From Vulcanimicrobiota bacterium (GTDB lineage: Bacteria; Vulcanimicrobiota; Vulcanimicrobiia; Vulcanimicrobiales; Vulcanimicrobiaceae): a stretch of DNA of 64,000 nucleotides. A program made the position numbers and the translations under genes. The notes under the pieces were generated by a model. It saw only the letters and a list, made by a program, of their open reading frames with translations, ran no database searches and was not told where the DNA came from. The DNA lies in contig OY969421.1 of assembly GCA_963699205.1 (NCBI GenBank), positions 1,624,427 to 1,688,426 on the forward strand. The letters run 5' to 3'. Shown here piece by piece: positions 1,273 through 58,511 of the stretch. Position 1 is the first letter of the stretch. Each line of letters opens with the position of its first letter.

Positions 1273-1440
1273 CTATTGTGTATCGCAAGGAGGGTGGCCG
1301 CACCCGCACACGTCGTCTTCTTCGCGGCCCTCGACCGCATTGCGGCAGAAGTCGCCGCAATACGCCTCGCCGCCCTCGACGGGTGCCGCGACGGAGCAGT
1401 TACACGGTTCGTGCGTACACTCAACGGGGACTTGTTGCAT
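1273..1440 (-). CDS. Small Cys/His-rich protein, SmtA/BmtA-like bacterial metallothionein (55 aa, not in ORF track)
   Basis: Minus-strand ATG at 1440, TAG at 1275-1273. Translation: MQQVPVECTHEPCNCSVAAPVEGGEAYCGDFCRNAVEGREEDDVCGCGHPPCDTQ. It has 8 Cys and 2 His, spaced like prokaryotic metallothioneins (C-x-H-x2-C-x-C, YC-x3-C, C-G-C-G-H-x2-C). Starts 2 nt after the stop of the upstream lipoprotein gene. Confidence 0.6.
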   Translation of the reverse strand: MQQVPVECTHEPCNCSVAAPVEGGEAYCGDFCRNAVEGREEDDVCGCGHPPCDTQ

Positions 1441-1442
1441 CG

Positions 1443-2165
1443 TTATGGGCAGGAGGTTGGGTGCACCGGATTGTTCGAGATCTCCACGCTGACGATCTGA
1501 GACTGCGGATCGGGTGGAGTGAATCCCGTTGCGTAGTAGGTGTTATCGAACGGTTCCGTCATGCAGAGTATTGGAGAGACCCACTGGGGATCGACCGGTC
1601 CACCCGACCCTAGTGAGTCGTAGAACGTCAAACTGTTTACCGGTCCGGGTCCGACGGTAAACGCATTGAAAGTCCACTTGCTCGGGGGCGATGCGCTCGG
1701 CGAGGGCGACGGCGATACGAAGATCGCTCGCTGCGCCAGCATCGAGAATTCTGTCCCGGTGCCGTTGCTATTGAGATTGAAGGAAAACTGCTGCGGCGTC
1801 GTATGGGGGCTAAAATATCCCGGCGGCCCATGTCCGACCTGCGGCGGCACGTATTGCACAACGTGCGCGCCGGCTCCGATGCCGTTCCCTGACGCGACGA
1901 GGGCATACGAGTATCCCGCCCAGTTCGTTTGGAACGTGTCGGTCGACGGCGTCACGCCGCTGCCCGTCGTGTTGAAAACCATCATGTACTGGTAGGTGGA
2001 GAAGTTGAAGGGCGCGGCAACATCAAAGTGGATCGCAATAAATCCAGGAGGAGCGCCGCCCGGTCCTAAACCCGGCGGATTGGGCGTCACTTGACGACCG
2101 CACGCCACGACGATGAACGCCGTTACTAATACGACGACAAAACCCAGACTCAATTTGCGCATCAT
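1443..2165 (-). CDS. Hypothetical lipoprotein
   Basis: N-terminus MMRKLSLGFVVVLVTAFIVVAC has a signal peptide with a lipobox-like VVAC. Pro/Gly/Ser-rich mature part. No recognisable catalytic motif. Confidence 0.6.
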   Translation of the reverse strand: MMRKLSLGFVVVLVTAFIVVACGRQVTPNPPGLGPGGAPPGFIAIHFDVAAPFNFSTYQYMMVFNTTGSGVTPSTDTFQTNWAGYSYALVASGNGIGAGAHVVQYVPPQVGHGPPGYFSPHTTPQQFSFNLNSNGTGTEFSMLAQRAIFVSPSPSPSASPPSKWTFNAFTVGPGPVNSLTFYDSLGSGGPVDPQWVSPILCMTEPFDNTYYATGFTPPDPQSQIVSVEISNNPVHPTSCP

Positions 2166-3657: not shown

Positions 3658-4214
3658 TGACACGCAGGCGGCTTTGGTACAAGCGCTTGGTAATTCTGAG
3701 CGGCGCGCTGCTCCTCACTTGGGTCATCGTCGAGATGGCACTGGCCGGCCGCGGCATTCCGCCAATACCTCGGGGACAGGCGCCGGTCGAACTGCACGGG
3801 GGACAGGTTCTCAACAATCACATCAGCACGCGTTCCTGGAGCTTCGATTACGATCGCGCGCGTCTTTCACCCGATGGAATGAGCGGGAGCGTTGATGGCG
3901 TGCGCAACGGCATCGTCTTTCGCAAAGGAAAGCCATACTTGCGAATCTCCGCGAAACACGTCTCACTCAACCTTACCTCTCTCGACTTCACCGCCGTCGG
4001 CAAGGTCCACATCGAGCGGATCGACGATCCGGAAAACCGCGCGTTCGACACCGACCTGGTCGTCTGGACGAACGATGCGAAGGTTCTTCGCATGGACCAT
4101 CCGAGCTACGTGCACTCGGGCGGTGAAACGCTACGGATCGATAAGATCTCCGTCAACTTCGACGACAGCACGATCCACTTAGGGAAAATCACCGGCGGCG
4201 TCGACATCCACTAA
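3657..4214 (+). CDS. Membrane-anchored periplasmic protein, LptC/OstA-like (tentative)
   Basis: The ATG at 3657 overlaps the lnt stop TGA by 1 nt. MTRRRLWYKRLVILSGALLLTWVIVEMALAG gives one N-terminal TM helix, followed by about 150 aa of beta-rich sequence. The upstream part of track ORF 3480-4214 is Arg-rich and overlaps lnt, so it is treated as artefact. Confidence 0.5.
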   Translation: MTRRRLWYKRLVILSGALLLTWVIVEMALAGRGIPPIPRGQAPVELHGGQVLNNHISTRSWSFDYDRARLSPDGMSGSVDGVRNGIVFRKGKPYLRISAKHVSLNLTSLDFTAVGKVHIERIDDPENRAFDTDLVVWTNDAKVLRMDHPSYVHSGGETLRIDKISVNFDDSTIHLGKITGGVDIH

Positions 4215-53354: not shown

Positions 53355-53983
53355 TGCTCGTCGGCTCACTGGCCGAAATTCGGCGGTATCCGATCAAGAG
53401 CCTATGCGGCGAGCATCTCGATTGCGCGCAGATCGGCCGCGACGGACTCGTGGGAGATCGCACGCGAGCGTTCTTCGTTCGCGCCGGAGGACGGCGCATC
53501 GGGAACACGTACCGCGGTAAAGAAAACGACGAGCTGCATCTCTTGCGGCGGCCGAAAGACGCCCATAATGCGGCGGCTCGGCGGGGCGTCGAAGTCGAAC
53601 TGCGCGACGGCGAACGCTTTTTCGACGCCGCGGCAATTTCGGTCATCGTAGATGGATGGTTGAATGACTTGAGCCGCCACGTCGGATATGCCGTACAGTG
53701 GCAGCGGTTCCGGCCGAATTTCTTCGTCACCGCCGCAAGCGATTTCAACTTGACGGAAAGCGCCTTGATCGGTACGGCTCTGTGCGTTGGAGACGTTCGC
53801 CTCACGGTTCAAGCGCCGATCTCACGCTGCGTCGTGACGACGTACGATCCGCACGGAAACGGAAAAGATCCCGAGGTGTTGCGCTTTATCGCGAATCAAC
53901 GCGACAACATCATGGGCATCTACTGCGACGTCATCTCGGCGGGGCGAGTTCGTATCGGCGACCGAGTGAGCAGCGGTCTCTAG
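53354..53983 (+). CDS. MOSC domain-containing protein
   Basis: LVGSLAEIRRYPIKSLCGEHL (MOSC_N-like), RFRPNFFV, ISRCVVTTYDP (conserved Cys). GTG start. Confidence 0.8.
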   Translation: MLVGSLAEIRRYPIKSLCGEHLDCAQIGRDGLVGDRTRAFFVRAGGRRIGNTYRGKENDELHLLRRPKDAHNAAARRGVEVELRDGERFFDAAAISVIVDGWLNDLSRHVGYAVQWQRFRPNFFVTAASDFNLTESALIGTALCVGDVRLTVQAPISRCVVTTYDPHGNGKDPEVLRFIANQRDNIMGIYCDVISAGRVRIGDRVSSGL

Positions 53984-53986
53984 GGA

Positions 53987-54023
53987 GGCCTGATTTCGTC
54001 GAGCGACTCCGCGAAATCCGGCC
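53987..54023 (+). terminator. Hairpin downstream of the MOSC gene (possible terminator, no U-tract)
   Basis: GGCCTGATTTCG (53987-53998) pairs with CGAAATCCGGCC (54012-54023), with one mismatch and a 13-nt loop. Not followed by a T-run. Confidence 0.3.
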
Positions 54024-54084
54024 TACCTGCACCCACACCCGGAATGGTCCTAGCGTAGCGCACGCAGCGCCGGCGCGCCCTAGA

Positions 54085-54092
54085 TAAAGCGC
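54085..54092. repeat. Target-site duplication, left copy (TAAAGCGC)
   Basis: Identical 8-mer TAAAGCGC immediately outside both inverted repeats (54085-54092 and 57858-57865). Confidence 0.8.
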
Positions 54093-54115
54093 GGGCATTA
54101 TATACTTGGCAAAAC
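54093..54115. repeat. Terminal inverted repeat (distal to the transposase)
   Basis: GGGCATTATATACTTGGCAAAAC. The reverse complement of 57835-57857 is GGGCATTATATACTTGACAAAAC. Confidence 0.85.
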
Positions 54116-54165
54116 GGAATACCTACCGTATAGTGGCCGGGTGACAGGGCGACGAATCTTCAGGC

Positions 54166-54480
54166 ATGGGACCGAAAGGCTTCTGGGTCGCACTTGCAAT
54201 CACCGTGGCGTACCTAATCGCTCGGCCTCATCTTGGCTCTGTCTGGTACGTTGAAGCGTTTGGCTTGACGGCTAGCACTCCTGAACCGCCAACTAATCCG
54301 CATGGGACGGGCTCCCTCCTTGAGGGCCTTCGTCCCCTTGATTCTCCCCCAATGGGGCCACCTGCTGCTGTCTTCCCTGACCGGCAATCTTGTTTTAGCG
54401 CGCTGGCGGCCTATGAACGAACCACGGGCGTTACGGGAGCTTACTGCGCTACCCGAACGGCCCTGCTGTGGGGCTGGTAG
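54166..54480 (+). CDS. Hypothetical small protein (cargo ORF, weak)
   Basis: 104 aa with one N-terminal hydrophobic helix (FWVALAITVAYLIA), then Pro/Gly/Thr-rich. No convincing SD. Confidence 0.3.
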   Translation: MGPKGFWVALAITVAYLIARPHLGSVWYVEAFGLTASTPEPPTNPHGTGSLLEGLRPLDSPPMGPPAAVFPDRQSCFSALAAYERTTGVTGAYCATRTALLWGW

Positions 54481-54504
54481 TTTTGGCGCTTGCCGTCAAC
54501 GGGG

Positions 54505-55533
54505 TTACTCGTATTCCGAGATAGTTGGCGGAGTTTCATTATGGCGCTGCGTTTCTTCGGTTGAAACTTGAGTCTTAAGAGGAAGCTTGGGCTGCGAGAT
54601 CACACCCCGGACTTTCACGATCTCGTAGGAAGGGTTTGATTCGCCATCCTTGGTGCGTCTTACGATAACCCTGGCCTCGACTCGGAGGAAATCCCCGCCG
54701 CGAATAATCTTCTCGCCTCGGTCAACCGATTTTACAAAATCCGCGTCCAACATCGCGGCGCGAATGTGAGCTTTGCCTTCCCAGAACCGCCAAGTTTTTA
54801 AGTCGGGGTCGAACGTGATTTGGCGCACCTGCCATGTCCGCGGCTGTATGTCGTCTGAGAGTACGTCGCCTTCGTCTGGTGTGATCTCGGTGCCCTCGGG
54901 TAGATTGACGGTAAATCCGCTAAGGTCGTCTCGCCTTATCTGGTTCGTTTTTCGCTGACCTTTTTTAAATCGAAGCTCCTCTATGCCGTCGCGCCGCAAC
55001 GGATTTGTAAGCGTTTCAAGGTCGTTCCGAACGTCGGCGCGCTGGTACATTTCCCAGGCTCCAGAGTCAACAAAAAGCGTGGCGTTGTTGTAGACCACCC
55101 TGGTTGCCGCCTCGTCTTTTTCAATCAGTGACGGCTTCCCGTGTCCGATACGCTTGGCGATTCCAATAAGCCCGAGCACGCCTAAGCCGCCCCCGATTTT
55201 TATAACGTCGTCGCCAAGAACGCCGAGGGTATCCAAAATACTCTTGAGGTCCTTAATTTGCGTCGTGCCTAAGAGAGACCTGATTTGCTCGATAGTATTC
55301 TGGATAAGGTGAATGTCAATTCCGAATGAGCCGCGTTTAAGATCGGCGCGCACCCGAACAGAAACTGCCGCCCGCTCACCGTTAAGCGTTTGGTTCGCCT
55401 CTGTGCAAAGACGGCTGAAGGCCAGCAGGGAAGGAGCGAGGTCCGTTATATCCATCTCGCCATTCTCAACCGCTATGCCATTAAATTCGAGGGTGAACTC
55501 CTCGGAACTAGACATCTGCCACGGCGCTTTCAT
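54505..55533 (-). CDS. Hypothetical protein, no recognisable family (largest cargo ORF)
   Basis: 342-aa ORF with balanced, non-Arg-rich composition. Central Gly/hydrophobic stretch VIKIGGGLGVLGLIGIAKRI. Beta-rich C-terminal half. Alternative start at Met7 (55515). Confidence 0.65.
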   Translation of the reverse strand: MKAPWQMSSSEEFTLEFNGIAVENGEMDITDLAPSLLAFSRLCTEANQTLNGERAAVSVRVRADLKRGSFGIDIHLIQNTIEQIRSLLGTTQIKDLKSILDTLGVLGDDVIKIGGGLGVLGLIGIAKRIGHGKPSLIEKDEAATRVVYNNATLFVDSGAWEMYQRADVRNDLETLTNPLRRDGIEELRFKKGQRKTNQIRRDDLSGFTVNLPEGTEITPDEGDVLSDDIQPRTWQVRQITFDPDLKTWRFWEGKAHIRAAMLDADFVKSVDRGEKIIRGGDFLRVEARVIVRRTKDGESNPSYEIVKVRGVISQPKLPLKTQVSTEETQRHNETPPTISEYE

Positions 55534-55552
55534 CCTTGGATACCCCTAACCC

Positions 55553-55738
55553 ATGGGACATGGTAAAATAGCTGCGATGGGCACGAAGATTCGAACGGCC
55601 GAGGAGGTTGAGGCCCCCGAAACCGCTTTTGAGCGGTTCAAGAAGGTGGTCATCGCGCTAGCGGTGACACCGAAGAACGGCAAGCCTGTATCCACGACGA
55701 AACGCCGGAAGAAGCCTAGCTCGGCTCGGGGCCGATAG
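55553..55738 (+). CDS. Hypothetical 61-aa protein (cargo ORF, weak)
   Basis: MGHGKIAAMGTKIRTAEEVEAPETAFERFKKVVIALAVTPKNGKPVSTTKRRKKPSSARGR. No SD. Its 3' end overlaps the convergent 60-aa ORF by 23 nt. Confidence 0.25.
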   Translation: MGHGKIAAMGTKIRTAEEVEAPETAFERFKKVVIALAVTPKNGKPVSTTKRRKKPSSARGR

Positions 55739-55898
55739 CCCCCTTTTCGGGGCGCTCCATTATTTCGCGGTGCTTGCGCTCCGCTTCCCAATAGGCTTCG
55801 ATAGCGGCTTCTTTCGTTGGGCCATGAACGGCCCATCCGTCGCCGTGGGCCGCCCACCCGTACTTAATCGGAGTAACGATCGGGTATTGCTGCTGCAT
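55716..55898 (-). CDS. Hypothetical 60-aa protein, HicB/UPF0150-like feel (cargo ORF)
   Basis: MQQQYPIVTPIKYGWAAHGDGWAVHGPTKEAAIEAYWEAERKHREIMERP... The ATG at 55898 is preceded by AAGGGG. Confidence 0.4.
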   Translation of the reverse strand: MQQQYPIVTPIKYGWAAHGDGWAVHGPTKEAAIEAYWEAERKHREIMERPEKGAIGPEPS

Positions 55899-55976
55899 AC
55901 CCCTTAACGATAGCCAAAGCACAAGGGCGCATAAAATACAGTATCAGAATAGAAGTGCTCGGACTCCCGCTAGCCC

Positions 55977-56005
55977 TTGACTTTTGTTTTGGTATTCCGT
56001 AGGAT
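55977..56005 (+). promoter_or_regulatory. Sigma-70-like promoter for the 56040-56687 cargo gene
   Basis: TTGACT (55977-55982), 17-nt spacer, TAGGAT (56000-56005). Lies 35 nt upstream of the ATG at 56040. Confidence 0.4.
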
Positions 56006-56039
56006 ATGTTCCGTGTTAGAACCGCTCGAACAAGATTTT

Positions 56040-56687
56040 ATGCCCTACGGTCCGGGTGCCCGGACGGTCGCCGTGATCAACCGAATCCATGAGGGAAAAT
56101 CCGGCAGCCCGCTCACCCCGGCTAAGTTGGCCGCTCTCGGTGTAGCCGAAGGGAACGCCGTTCGTGTGCAGCGTTCGCTTTATTTTTTGGGGCTTATTGA
56201 CGAGGAGGGGAACCTCACCGAGGGTGCTACGCGGCTACGGAAGGCGGCGAGCGGCGAGTATGCCGAGGCCCTCGCGGAGATCATTCGCGATAAATACGCC
56301 CCCATCATCGAAATGTACGACCCGGCAACGGCGACCGGATTAGATCTGAACAATGCGTTCAGGCAGTACGAGCCTGCCGGACAAAAAGACAATATGATTC
56401 GGCTATACACGGCTCTTTGTCAAGAGGCTGGGTTAATGCCGACGACTGAGAAAAAGCGTGGTCGTCCGCTTGGGTCAAAAGCCAGCGATGGGTCGGCGAA
56501 GCTGCAAAAAAACCGGGAGCAGGCGCGTACCAATGGCACAACTCACCAAAACCATCCTCCGCCGGCACCCTCAATAGTGAACCTTCTCGTATCGAAATTT
56601 CCGGACTTTAATCCAGAGTGGGAGTCCGCCGTCCAAGAACGATGGTTTCAGGCGTTCTCGCGGCTTCAGGAGGAGCTTAAGAAATAA
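56040..56687 (+). CDS. Hypothetical protein with wHTH-like N-terminus (DUF5343-like by recollection) and a basic linker (cargo ORF)
   Basis: MPYGPGARTVAVINRIHEGKSGSPLTPAKLAALGVAEGNAVRVQRSLYFLGLIDEEGNLTEG... A central KKRGRPLGSK AT-hook-like patch. C-terminal helical segment. Confidence 0.6.
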   Translation: MPYGPGARTVAVINRIHEGKSGSPLTPAKLAALGVAEGNAVRVQRSLYFLGLIDEEGNLTEGATRLRKAASGEYAEALAEIIRDKYAPIIEMYDPATATGLDLNNAFRQYEPAGQKDNMIRLYTALCQEAGLMPTTEKKRGRPLGSKASDGSAKLQKNREQARTNGTTHQNHPPPAPSIVNLLVSKFPDFNPEWESAVQERWFQAFSRLQEELKK

Positions 56688-56846
56688 AGCAGCTTTGATC
56701 GCGACAGAAGCCGCCCCCGGTCGTAAAGGGGAGAGCGGCTCCGTGGTAAGTGCCGGTATCGTCGTCCGGCGGCTACCTTGGCGGTCAAGAGGTACGGGGG
56801 TCGTTTGCGGTAAGAGGCGACGGCCCTCGATCTTTTCTTAGCGGCT

Positions 56847-57809
56847 TTAGCGTTTCCCCGTCAAGGTCTTATACGTTAGCCGCTTGCCCTCGGCTAGCTT
56901 CGCGGCTTCAACGAAACGCGGCCCGTCTGTATTCTCGCGCTCATTGAACCGATAGACTTGCTCCTCGACGTATCGTTGCAGATGCTTCGGGCGAGGAGCA
57001 ATATACGTTCCGCGAATGGTGCGCTTGAATACGCTGAAGAACGATTCGATGGAATTCGTGTGAACGTGGCCCTCCACATAAGAATAAGCGTGATCTATCA
57101 CCCGATGGATAAAGTCCCGCTCTAGTCCTTGGTACCAGCGTCCGCCGTCAGTATGAATCTCCGAACCGCGCTTCACGCGGCGGCGAATCTCGGGCTGTAG
57201 CTCGCGGCCCTCTACGAAGGGCGCAACCCATGCTCGCACCTTACCCTTGCGCTCTTTGGACGAGCGCTGCACAATGCCCATGACGGCGGCCTTATCGCCT
57301 GAAAGACGACCTCGCATATAGCTCGACGGCGACCCTTCAAGCCGCGCACGCCGCTTGCGGTTCATTAGCTGGACCGAACCGCCGACGTAGGTTTCATCGG
57401 CCTCGACGGGGCCTTCCAGGGGTTCTTCGGACTCGTCACGCATGGCTTCGCGAATCCGATGGAGCATGAACCAGGCCGTCTTTTGCGTGACGCCAAGCGC
57501 CCGCGCAAGCTCGCAGGATGACGTTCCGTTACGGGTCGCCGTCAGCAACCAGATCGCTGGCAACCACTTGGAAAACGAGATCGGGCTATCTTCAAAGATC
57601 GTGCCCGTCTTGGCCGTAAACTGCTGGCGGCATTCCTTGCATGACCAGCGCCGATACTTGGGCATATACGCGACCTTGGCATTCCCACAATGCGGACAAC
57701 CCGCACCATTCGGCCAACGCAGGCCCGCGAAAAAGTCATGCGCTACCTGGGCGTCAGCGAAATACGCGACGGCTTCGGTAAGAGTGCGCGGGACTTGTAA
57801 CTTGCCCAT
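56847..57809 (-). CDS. IS1595 family transposase (ISXO2-like DDE)
   Basis: N-terminal zinc ribbon CPHCGNAKVAYMPKYRRWSCKECRQQFTAKTGTIFEDS. HTH segment SSCELARALGVTQKTAWFMLHRIREAM. DDE domain with ADETYVGG ... IHTDGGRWY ... HTNSIESFFSVFKR. Confidence 0.9.
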   Translation of the reverse strand: MGKLQVPRTLTEAVAYFADAQVAHDFFAGLRWPNGAGCPHCGNAKVAYMPKYRRWSCKECRQQFTAKTGTIFEDSPISFSKWLPAIWLLTATRNGTSSCELARALGVTQKTAWFMLHRIREAMRDESEEPLEGPVEADETYVGGSVQLMNRKRRARLEGSPSSYMRGRLSGDKAAVMGIVQRSSKERKGKVRAWVAPFVEGRELQPEIRRRVKRGSEIHTDGGRWYQGLERDFIHRVIDHAYSYVEGHVHTNSIESFFSVFKRTIRGTYIAPRPKHLQRYVEEQVYRFNERENTDGPRFVEAAKLAEGKRLTYKTLTGKR

Positions 57810-57834
57810 ACCTCTACTTTACCAGGCAAAGGTA

Positions 57835-57857
57835 GTTTTGTCAAGTATATAATGCCC
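57835..57857. repeat. Terminal inverted repeat (transposase-proximal)
   Basis: GTTTTGTCAAGTATATAATGCCC, the reverse complement of the 54093-54115 repeat with one mismatch. Confidence 0.85.
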
Positions 57858-57865
57858 TAAAGCGC
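57858..57865. repeat. Target-site duplication, right copy (TAAAGCGC)
   Basis: Identical to 54085-54092 and directly abuts the inverted repeat. Confidence 0.8.
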
Positions 57866-57911
57866 ATTAGACCGTTCGCCAGTGCCGATTGGTCGTTCCG
57901 AGGGTAACGTT

Positions 57912-58511
57912 CTAAAGTGCGCGGCGGCCTTCCAAGGCTTTTGTTATCGTCATTTCATCGGCGTAATCGAGGTCGCCGCCGATGGGCAAGCCGTATGCGA
58001 GCCGCGTTACCGCGACACCGAGCGGCGTTAGTAATCGCGAGAGATACAGCGCGGTGGCCTCTCCTTCGGCATTTGGATTGGTCGCCAGAATGATTTCGTG
58101 AGGCTCGTCGCGCCCAATCCGTTCGACCAGGTCTTTGACGTGGAGTTGGGCGGGGCCGATTCCATCAATTGGCGAGATCAAACCGCCCAACACGTGATAT
58201 CGCCCCGTAAACGCTCCGGTTCGCTCGATCGCATAGACGTCTTTCGCCTCGGCAACGACGCAGATGGTACTTGCGTCGCGCCGTTCGTCGGCGCAGTATT
58301 CACATTCGCCGTTTTCCGCAAGCGCGAAACAAGTCGGGCACGAACTCACGCCGTCTTTGAGCGCCACGATCGCTTGCGCCAAAGTCGCCGCTTCGTGGCG
58401 CGGACGATTCAACAAATGGAAAACGAGTCGCGCGGCGGTTTTCGGGCCGATCGTCGGCAGCTTACTGAACTCACCGATCAGCGTTGCCACCGGGCTGGCG
58501 ATTTTTGTCAC
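57912..58511 (-). CDS. recR: Recombination protein RecR
   Basis: LPTIGPKTAARLVFHLL HhH motif. Zinc finger CPTCFALAENGECEYC. Toprim ICVVAEAKDVYAIE. Confidence 0.9.
   Translation of the reverse strand: MTKIASPVATLIGEFSKLPTIGPKTAARLVFHLLNRPRHEAATLAQAIVALKDGVSSCPTCFALAENGECEYCADERRDASTICVVAEAKDVYAIERTGAFTGRYHVLGGLISPIDGIGPAQLHVKDLVERIGRDEPHEIILATNPNAEGEATALYLSRLLTPLGVAVTRLAYGLPIGGDLDYADEMTITKALEGRRAL

Follow-up and report, generated by a model that had tools for sequence, protein, structure and literature searches.

The window analyzed here, a 64,000-nucleotide stretch of a Vulcanimicrobiota bacterium contig, contains an IS1595-family element of 3765 bp (~3.8 kb; positions 54093-57857) in which passenger genes and a transposase lie between inverted repeats. 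The left, transposase-distal repeat (GGGCATTATATACTTGGCAAAAC, 54093-54115, + strand) had no matches in shuffled sequence and is complementary at 22 of 23 positions to the 23-nt right repeat (57835-57857, - strand); no such match would be expected by chance. Reading of the sequence places identical copies of an 8-bp target-site duplication, TAAAGCGC, outside the two repeats (54085-54092 and 57858-57865). The 320-aa DDE transposase (56847-57809, - strand) matches PF12762 (5.5e-36), the zinc ribbon family PF12760 at its N-terminus (6.6e-11) and NF033547 (4e-58; 196.8 bits, cutoff 75). The IS1595 family was reportedly defined by Siguier et al. in 2009, and three features expected of a transporter IS in this family were found: the transposase type with its zinc ribbon, the repeats with an 8-bp duplication, and passengers between the repeats. 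The insertion site is intergenic, with a MOSC-domain gene on one flank and recR on the other. The exact element was seen at this one site only; a 3400-bp contig (L007) is 100% identical and begins precisely at the left repeat.

Promoter-like sites of the element, recognized as consensus matches, occur at the expected positions. One faces inward and partly overlaps the left repeat (TTGGCA-17-TATAGT, 54106-54134, + strand, 10/12 consensus match), with TTGGCA-17-TAAAGT as its equivalent in the sister element L070, and another, for the transposase, partly overlaps the right repeat (TTGACA-17-TAAAGT with TG, 57816-57844, - strand, 10/12 match). An Rfam scan of positions 53900-58000 gave no match, and no phage genes were found in or around the IS. 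The search for direct repeats around the 342-aa segment described below returned short chance-level matches only, one pair of which represents two similar ribosome-binding regions.

All five ORFs that the original prediction had listed between the left repeat and the transposase (54116-56846) are present, and they are genuine IS cargo, as it had proposed, lying inside the inverted repeats of an element with an IS1595 transposase and a flanking 8-bp duplication. Its count of four to five cargo genes holds for four non-transposase genes, encoding 342, 224, 61 and 60 aa, which are conserved elsewhere and real, but not for the 104-aa ORF (54166-54480, + strand), whose coding status is unsupported. 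This ORF has no family match, the source annotation omits it, and its codon-position GC1/2/3 of 0.64/0.61/0.56 is unlike that of neighbouring genes and not gene-like; given this atypical composition and the lack of any homologue beyond the identical L007 copy, it was dropped as a gene. Measured from the left repeat, it starts where an 82-aa membrane-type ORF starts in L070. A terminator-like hairpin (54458-54476, + strand) lies between the convergent 104-aa ORF and 342-aa gene; it is a pattern match, and such sites are rarer than in shuffled sequence.

The 61-aa protein (55553-55738, + strand) has a basic tail and is called in the source annotation. Its homologues in L067, L070 and L072 retain a conserved core, FERFK, with 53-56% identity to L070 and L072 by tblastn, and the L067 homologue (641-790 of that locus) stands immediately past the left repeat, upstream of PD-Lambda-5_A. 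The gene is common to all informative sister elements and, as judged from sequence comparison, belongs to the backbone of the IS lineage. The sister elements themselves (L067-L072) share the terminal repeat of the element studied here, have transposases 70-76% identical to its own and occupy other sites: L067 and L070 have their own 8-bp duplications (CAAATTAG and CACTCTTG, respectively), and L071 adjoins uvrA. In L067 the cargo includes a PD-Lambda-5 system with both components (A at 4e-115, B at 2e-101) and therefore complete; its defence function has been experimentally validated (PMC9519451). L070 and L072 carry DUF3800 genes. These elements suggest that very small IS1595-type elements, and not just large transposons or islands, shuttle defence genes, and that backbones closely related to one another differ in cargo.

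The 342-aa protein (54505-55533, - strand) had been described as lacking any recognizable motif. The PADLOC scan suggested at the time yielded a full-length match to the defence candidate PDC-S42 (1.1e-62; residues 9-310 against positions 2-288 of a 302-position profile), and the protein also matches NCBIfam NF053583 (LAPAL_fam; 174.9 bits, cutoff 60), with an LAPSL motif at residues 32-36, and phrog_3243 (5e-44). The peptide stretches quoted in the original prediction are present, as is the beta-rich C-terminal half, which appears in an AlphaFold model of pLDDT 72. The C-terminus is modelled as OB-fold-like: we assign to its beta strands, residues 223-312, the Foldseek matches to single-strand-binding, LysRS-N and HIN-200 proteins (2e-3 to 4e-2). 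When PDB sequences were searched with a profile from the 342-aa alignment, nothing real emerged. The proposed membrane-inserting segment is weak, its best Kyte-Doolittle 19-residue window scoring 1.47 (usual threshold 1.6) in a stretch of low AlphaFold confidence. The GC content of the gene is 53%, compared with ~56-64% in host genes, and this lower value suggests a foreign origin.

Homologues of the 342-aa protein were found at six other loci, the closest being 58% and 29% identical. At L004-L006 the homologue directly follows the two genes of a type III restriction-modification system, in the vicinity of ParDE, Mrr and an integrase, and at L001 its neighbours are DndB, Fic, an integrase and a restriction-modification pair made up of a BglII-type endonuclease and a methylase. 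PDC systems are a set of 145 guilt-by-embedding defence candidates, which are predictions only (bioRxiv 10.1101/2024.01.29.577857), and PADLOC lists PDC-S42 as a single-gene candidate. The 342-aa protein is best regarded as a predicted stand-alone anti-phage candidate. Our literature search found no paper mentioning PDC-S42, PDC-M34 or DUF5343. As a compact natural 3.8-kb construct with promoter-like sites, the element would be suited to a functional assay of this widespread candidate.

The second large passenger gene encodes a DUF5343 protein and is preceded by the promoter-like site that had been read there, TTGACT-N17-TAGGAT (55977-56005, + strand, 9/12 match). The ORF is present as predicted, but its length of 215 aa probably needs correction: a start at GTG 56013, giving 224 aa (56013-56687, + strand), is more likely because it is the source annotation's own call and the residues preceding FMPY are conserved in homologues. 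A GTG 56013 start would be leaderless, with the -10 hexamer ending 7 nt upstream; TTG 55977 coincides with the -35 hexamer. The protein matches PF17278 (E 4.2e-10; 40.5 bits, cutoff 27), which was also found in 23 of 23 homologues, and belongs to a family of 2456 representative clusters. Its layout comprises a helical domain whose N-terminus is winged-helix-like, a C-terminal helical hairpin and, as the linker, a basic segment with an AT-hook-like RGRP motif, confined to the close DUF5343 subfamily (13 of 170) (AlphaFold pLDDT 84; ~97 across residues 1-140). Foldseek searches with this model gave weak winged-helix matches only (best E 0.2), and the DUF5343 alignment, run as a profile against PDB sequences, found nothing real. 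The earlier suggestion that the protein binds DNA is plausible. Pfam, NCBIfam and PADLOC models match both large proteins, and IS1595 elements with passengers are an established class; the description of the cargo as novel was thus overstated. Nor do the remarks hold that the 342-aa protein has no recognizable motif and that the ORFs are unlike the usual IS accessory genes, since both large proteins fall in catalogued families and, of the ORFs of small or medium size, two are found again in related IS elements.

Divergent from the DUF5343 gene lies a 60-aa ORF (55716-55898, - strand), called with the same length in the source annotation, which has a good Shine-Dalgarno sequence (AAGGGG) ahead of ATG 55898 and the motif GW.A.G.GWAV.G.T.EEA. 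Copies 52-60% identical are found divergently upstream of DUF5343 in L008-L013, and an iterative profile collected 30 ORFs, the window's own and duplicate contigs counted in. The family search gave no Pfam or PADLOC match and sub-threshold PHROG matches only (best E 0.009). A HicB-like identity, guessed from GW...G.T.EEA, was unsupported by any library, and the PDB profile matches were designed repeat proteins, obtained by chance.

Across 51 species genomes, DUF5343 stands next to an IS1595 or IS1 transposase in 12 (~24%), the transposase being IS1595 in 10 of the 51. An IS1-type transposase lies beside DUF5343 in three further loci, L036 and L039 among the 51 genomes and the metagenome locus L011. 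Inverted-repeat pairs around transposase and DUF5343 were identified in L008, L017, L034, L046, L054, L057, L059 and L060, and DUF5343 was inside the repeats wherever these could be located. The gene order of the window, small ORF (-), DUF5343 (+) and transposase (-), recurs in L054 and L059. Elsewhere the 60-aa/DUF5343 pair adjoins variable genes, often of nuclease or defence type; neighbours of DUF5343 include NYN/HEC-09 (seven loci), DUF4760, DUF7718, HEPN and PD-Lambda-3_B. In L016 the small ORF and the NYN gene share a strand, with the NYN gene 176 nt downstream, and in the window the 342-aa gene lies 182 nt downstream of the 60-aa ORF. HEC-09, the commonest neighbour, reportedly gave no protection when assayed alone. 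From these gene neighbourhoods, the 60-aa/DUF5343 pair is a portable cassette recurring beside IS1595/IS1 transposases in many phyla. Flagging DUF5343 and its 60-aa partner as recurrent companions of these transposases and of NYN/HEC-09 genes offers a starting point for the functional assignment of a family of ~2500 sequence clusters. With the nearest homologues at 58-62% identity, saturation of synonymous sites would be expected in any dN/dS comparison.

Taken together, the region is probably the passenger compartment of an IS1595-family transporter IS whose passengers form a mosaic of at least three evolutionarily independent units rather than one module: the 61-aa backbone gene, the 60-aa/DUF5343 divergent pair, and the stand-alone 342-aa PDC-S42/LAPAL gene.

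The 60-aa/DUF5343 pair and the 61-aa gene could instead serve transposition in a subgroup of IS1595 elements, through target choice, regulation of the transposase or maintenance, which would leave the 342-aa gene as the sole passenger. Such a role would fit the position of DUF5343 within the repeats beside the transposase in the eight resolved elements, drawn from several phyla, the observation that every transposase match in the 12-kb DUF5343 loci adjoins DUF5343, and the presence of the 61-aa gene in the sisters. The minimal element L008 (2547 bp) contains the transposase, a small ORF and DUF5343 only, and L059 (2832 bp) is similar, its small ORF encoding 137 aa and not being detected by the 60-aa profile. 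In the subgroup L054, L057 and L060, transposase and DUF5343 diverge in parallel. Overall, however, their divergence is uncorrelated (Spearman 0.15, p 0.31), and between the window and L008 the transposases are 34% identical and the DUF5343 proteins 62%. The closest sisters, L067, L070 and L072, are entirely without DUF5343, and the orientation of DUF5343 relative to the transposase varies. Most DUF5343 homologues, including ~75% of the genomic loci, have no transposase nearby, and Dehalococcoidia keep the gene, without the small partner, at a conserved housekeeping position flanked by ftsZ and a deacetylase gene. We consider a role in transposition unlikely on this balance.

The original prediction favoured a single dedicated two-gene module, a toxin/immunity, abortive-infection or addiction pair of DNA-binding protein and 342-aa protein mobilised by the IS. 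Both genes do lie within one IS, 480 bp apart, the 342-aa gene is downstream of and on the same strand as the partner ORF of DUF5343, and the DUF5343 protein has a weak match (2.3e-6) to PDC-M34A, one component of a candidate system of two genes, PDC-M34. No match to component B was found, however, in the window or among the 83 neighbours recorded for homologues of DUF5343; for PDC-M34, the PADLOC candidate paper lists family numbers only in its supplementary tables (bioRxiv 10.1101/2024.01.29.577857). Against a pair stands also the filing of PDC-S42 by PADLOC as a single gene. None of the six other 342-aa loci has DUF5343, the small ORFs or a transposase nearby, a PDC-S42 homologue occurs in 0 of 57 other DUF5343 loci, and the two are found together only in the 100% identical L007 copy. 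The paired toxin/immunity reading fails, by the first of the refuting results that the original prediction had itself named, because the two proteins never co-occur elsewhere, and we regard such a module as improbable. The defence flavour of the earlier proposal survives in another form, in the PDC-S42 candidate and in the validated system carried by a sister.

A structural role in phages for the 342-aa protein, with the region as a prophage remnant rather than defence cargo, might be read from the NF053583 name 'LAPAL motif-containing putative phage structural protein', the PHROG match and homologues in three temperate phages, but is highly improbable. The gene is not part of the structural module, as the name would imply, in phages A2 and vB_LmoS_188, where it occupies a moron slot between endolysin and integrase and adjoins a putative superinfection-immunity gene. 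No phage genes were found in the IS or its surroundings, other homologues come from restriction-modification or Dnd islands and, as isolated genes, from archaea, and the predicted OB-like fold is not a known virion fold. The NCBI name is probably misleading for the PDC-S42 family.

For the mosaic of independent passengers, the most likely mechanism is one in which the transposase would move the whole unit and DUF5343 would act as a DNA-binding regulator at the shared 114-bp divergent promoter region (55899-56012). There it may control its own gene and a leftward transcript of the 60-aa gene followed by the 342-aa gene. Against this model, such a common transcript would be antisense to the 61-aa gene, because that gene sits between the other two on the opposite strand, and the 342-aa gene has no promoter-like site that could be found immediately ahead of it. 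We infer that the 342-aa protein may then function in defence as a single-gene anti-phage effector of abortive-infection type, whose OB-fold-like C-terminus would recognise a nucleic-acid or phage cue. A broader and doubtful extension is that the 60-aa/DUF5343 pair is a portable control cassette, sensor or silencer, used by IS1595/IS1-type elements to carry and tame interchangeable anti-phage effectors (NYN/HEC-09, PDC-S42, DUF4760, HEPN) on either arm of the divergent promoter. If true, the cassette would amount to a miniature transposase-driven plug-in defence platform and could account for the lack of protection by HEC-09 alone.

The transporter IS concept (PMC9330008) includes IS1595 elements with passengers such as tISCpe8 and MTnSag1 (PMC5704250). 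The element resembles these in having repeats of ~23-25 bp, an 8-bp duplication, enclosed passengers and, as its only transposase, a DDE enzyme of IS1595 type whose N-terminus bears a zinc ribbon. Where the known examples carry a gene for lincosamide resistance and functions in mobilisation, this one has the defence-type gene PDC-S42 and the DUF5343 cassette, and its sisters have PD-Lambda-5 or DUF3800, likewise of defence type. In the literature we found no paper linking IS1595 with defence cargo. As a PDC-S42 protein, the 342-aa product has the full-length profile match and, at L001 and L004-L006, relatives that border restriction-modification or Dnd genes, in line with how the candidate is defined, but the window copy sits in an IS between housekeeping genes rather than embedded in a defence system, and its defence role is a prediction.

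Transcription regulators of the BrxR/CapW type accompany many unrelated defence systems. The DUF5343 protein is likewise of predicted winged-helix type, beside a divergent promoter and interchangeable defence-type genes, but it has neither sequence nor significant structural relation to them, lacks a WYL domain and also occurs in housekeeping contexts. Transposons are vehicles for defence systems as well, for example through Tn7-like cargo. The elements described here share with these a transposase-bounded structure and variable defence cargo exchanged among closely related backbones, but at 2.5-4.2 kb they are much smaller, and each has one DDE transposase and one or two cargo genes but lacks targeting machinery.

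The five ORFs predicted between the distal inverted repeat and the transposase gene were all present as described in an ORF check of the window, and all of them lie inside one complete insertion sequence. Its terminal inverted repeats (54093-54115 and 57835-57857) are complementary at 22 of 23 positions, a match found in none of 100 shuffles, and the target-site 8-mer TAAAGCGC stands once at each end (54085-54092 and 57858-57865), which defines an element of 3765 bp (54093-57857). The element, whose AT content exceeds that of the flanking DNA, separates a MOSC-domain gene from recR and encodes on the minus strand an IS1595-family transposase with a zinc ribbon (56847-57809). Promoter-like hexamers face inward just inside both repeats, and another precedes the gene identified below as DUF5343 (five sites observed versus 1.8 +/- 1.6 in shuffles). 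The motif TTGACAAA, part of the inner terminal repeats, is common to distantly related IS1595 elements (the window and comparison loci L046, L054, L057, L059 and L060); in the window it (54106-54111 and 57839-57844) is also the -35 hexamer of the inward promoter-like sites at both ends. A 3400-bp contig from run ERR11594400 (L007) was 100% identical to window positions 54093-57492. Its first base is also that of the left inverted repeat, as would be expected if the element were multi-copy or polymorphic in the sample.

The 342-aa protein (54505-55533, minus strand), in which the original prediction recognized no motif, is not an orphan, being matched by families in PADLOC, NCBIfam and PHROG. 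A PADLOC profile scan recovered a full-length match to PDC-S42 (1.1e-62), NCBIfam NF053583 ('LAPAL motif-containing putative phage structural protein') scored 174.9 bits (cutoff 60), and phrog_3243 also matched. The PDC systems are 145 putative candidates, whose prediction rests on their being embedded in loci for BREX, DISARM or type I restriction-modification (bioRxiv 10.1101/2024.01.29.577857). A homologue with 29% identity lies 46 nt after a type III restriction-modification pair on the same strand, with ParDE, Mrr and an integrase nearby, and DndB, a BglII-type endonuclease, an MT-A70 methylase, Fic and an integrase accompany a 58%-identical homologue. In archaea, the homologues stand as isolated genes, with a primase-type and a HEPN gene in the vicinity. 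The phage homologues, ORF19 of Lactobacillus phage A2 (L065, 4004-4906) and ORF27 of Listeria phage vB_LmoS_188 (L066, 3989-4876), are both located between endolysin/lysis genes and the integrase, adjoining immunity-type genes. This interval is the usual lysogenic-conversion slot and not a structural module, and because of this position in both phages the family name 'putative phage structural protein' looks wrong.

The AlphaFold model of the 342-aa protein (pLDDT 72) has an N-terminal alpha/beta domain bearing conserved LAPSL and GSF motifs, a low-confidence Gly/hydrophobic stretch (residues 79-116) and, after it, a beta-rich middle domain. Foldseek matches to single-strand-binding proteins, the LysRS N-domain and HIN-200 (2e-3 to 4e-2) were assigned to the C-terminal beta-strand region (residues ~223-312), which in the model looks like an OB-fold barrel. 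Conserved residues of the C-terminus include W248, R249, D263 and F266. The possible membrane-inserting segment was not supported, the hydrophobic stretch reaching 1.47 in a 19-residue hydropathy window, under the usual membrane-helix threshold.

The second large ORF, predicted as 215 aa (56040-56687, plus strand), is a real gene, but homologues and the source annotation point to a start at GTG 56013, which would give a protein of 224 aa. It matches Pfam DUF5343 (40.5 bits, cutoff 27) and, weakly, PDC-M34A. Residues 1-140 are modeled by AlphaFold at pLDDT ~97; in a Foldseek search of the PDB with this model nothing matched significantly, and the winged-helix-like N-terminus proposed for the protein was recovered in weak matches only. 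Next comes a basic disordered linker with an RGRP AT-hook-like motif restricted to the close DUF5343 subfamily. The family comprises 2456 representative clusters at E <= 0.001, and the nearest member among named genomes is in Candidatus Velthaea, phylum Vulcanimicrobiota. Upstream of DUF5343, on the minus strand, lies the 60-aa ORF (55716-55898), which has 52-60% identity to sequences in six metagenome loci (tblastn) and whose profile found 30 ORFs, the window's own and duplicate contigs counted. As this ORF is conserved and divergently oriented, the two genes represent a conserved divergent pair.

A toxin/immunity-type module pairing the 342-aa and DUF5343 proteins had been proposed, and this pairing does not recur elsewhere. 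DUF5343, the small ORFs and the transposase were absent from all six other loci with 342-aa homologues, and a PDC-S42 homologue was found at 0 of 57 other DUF5343 loci; the sole locus holding both genes is L007, the identical copy of the element. The original prediction itself named such a lack of co-occurrence as refuting a paired module, and by that measure the two large proteins do not form one. In this element the slot downstream of the 60-aa ORF is filled by the 342-aa gene, and a generic relation, in which the 60-aa/DUF5343 cassette goes with interchangeable genes, is plausible.

Scanning one genome per species yielded 51 DUF5343 loci. An IS1595 transposase directly adjoins DUF5343 in 10 of these and an IS1-type transposase in two more (L036, L039), as well as in metagenome locus L011; all transposase matches within the 12-kb loci adjoin DUF5343. 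In eight cases an inverted-repeat pair surrounds transposase and DUF5343, the elements measuring 2.5-4.2 kb. The gene order of the window, small ORF (-), DUF5343 (+), transposase (-), is repeated in L054 and L059, and the third region of DUF5343-bearing elements varies (NYN/HEC-09, DUF4760, DUF7718 or unknown genes). Extra cargo ORFs in L017 (7719-8489), L046 (7905-8528), L057 (7049-7907) and L060 (7061-7926) include a 256-aa protein rich in Cys and a membrane/coiled-coil protein of 207 aa, and had no match in Pfam or PADLOC except DUF7718 (L060).

The tally of 50 downstream and 33 upstream DUF5343 neighbors included NYN/HEC-09 at seven loci in all, several transposases, and one each of HEPN, PD-Lambda-3_B, DUF3800 and DUF4760. 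The NYN/HEC-09 genes (L016, L017, L021, L026, L032, L041, L046) lie 130-230 nt from the DUF5343/small-ORF pair; six match PADLOC HEC-09 at up to ~1e-40, and that of L017 more weakly (E 2.9e-6). HEC-09 alone gave no phage protection in a published screen, and so may need the DUF5343/small-ORF partner. In L016 the NYN gene follows the small ORF on the same strand after 176 nt, a spacing that mirrors the 182 nt by which the window's 342-aa gene follows its 60-aa ORF.

The link between DUF5343 and transposase is not one of stable co-inheritance, since their pairwise identities were not correlated (Spearman 0.15, p 0.31) and since Dehalococcoidia DUF5343 genes occur in an ftsZ-deacetylase locus. 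These Dehalococcoidia/Chloroflexota genes (L045-L053, L055, L056), a distant branch at ~30% identity, sit in a conserved chromosomal locus with ftsZ and a histone-deacetylase-family gene on either side, and neither the small partner ORF nor a transposase is present there. Such a setting may reflect a housekeeping function in DNA binding for some members of the DUF5343 family.

An exact-pattern scan of metagenomes for the window's inverted repeat recovered six contigs with sister elements, whose transposases are 70-76% identical to that of the window. One (L067) holds a complete 3534-bp element, with duplication CAAATTAG, in which a full PD-Lambda-5 system (A 4e-115, B 2e-101) comes after a 61-aa-like gene; PD-Lambda-5 has been validated by experiment and shows broad activity (PMC9519451). 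In L070 and L072 the cargo consists of DUF3800 genes, membrane-type ORFs and a 61-aa-like gene, and L071 adjoins uvrA. The 61-aa-like genes identify the 61-aa ORF (55553-55738, plus strand) as part of the backbone of this IS lineage; neither DUF5343 nor PDC-S42 was found in these sister elements. At the place held by DUF5343 in the window, L068 has a 138-aa ORF (1323-1739, minus strand) with a possible winged-helix C-terminus, convergent with the transposase gene, and the two elements share ~145 conserved nt past the transposase stop.

The sister IS of L070 (DUF3800 cargo, frameshifted transposase) is inserted, in a related genome, at precisely the nucleotide between the MOSC gene and recR where the window element lies. 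Both have the identical flank ATTAGACCG, and each is bordered by a perfect 8-bp duplication of its own, TAAAGCGC in the window and CACTCTTG in L070 (868-875 / 4102-4109). Separate duplications at one site suggest a hot spot that was hit independently in each genome, not a single insertion that both inherited. The 104-aa ORF (54166-54480, plus strand), a putative gene, starts at the same place relative to the left repeat and promoter-like site as the membrane-type ORF of L070. It is not called in the source annotation, has no homologues beyond the identical L007 copy, and its codon-position GC (0.64/0.61/0.56) is unlike that of every neighboring gene.

Defense-type cargo of this IS lineage, different cargo on closely related IS backbones, and a recurrent DUF5343/60-aa cassette inside IS1595/IS1 elements all appear not to have been described in the literature searched. 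Passenger genes are already known from IS1595 elements such as tISCpe8 and MTnSag1, which form an established class (PMC5704250; concept PMC9330008). The window element belongs to this class, and as its two large proteins fall in existing, uncharacterized families, it is an element of a known kind.
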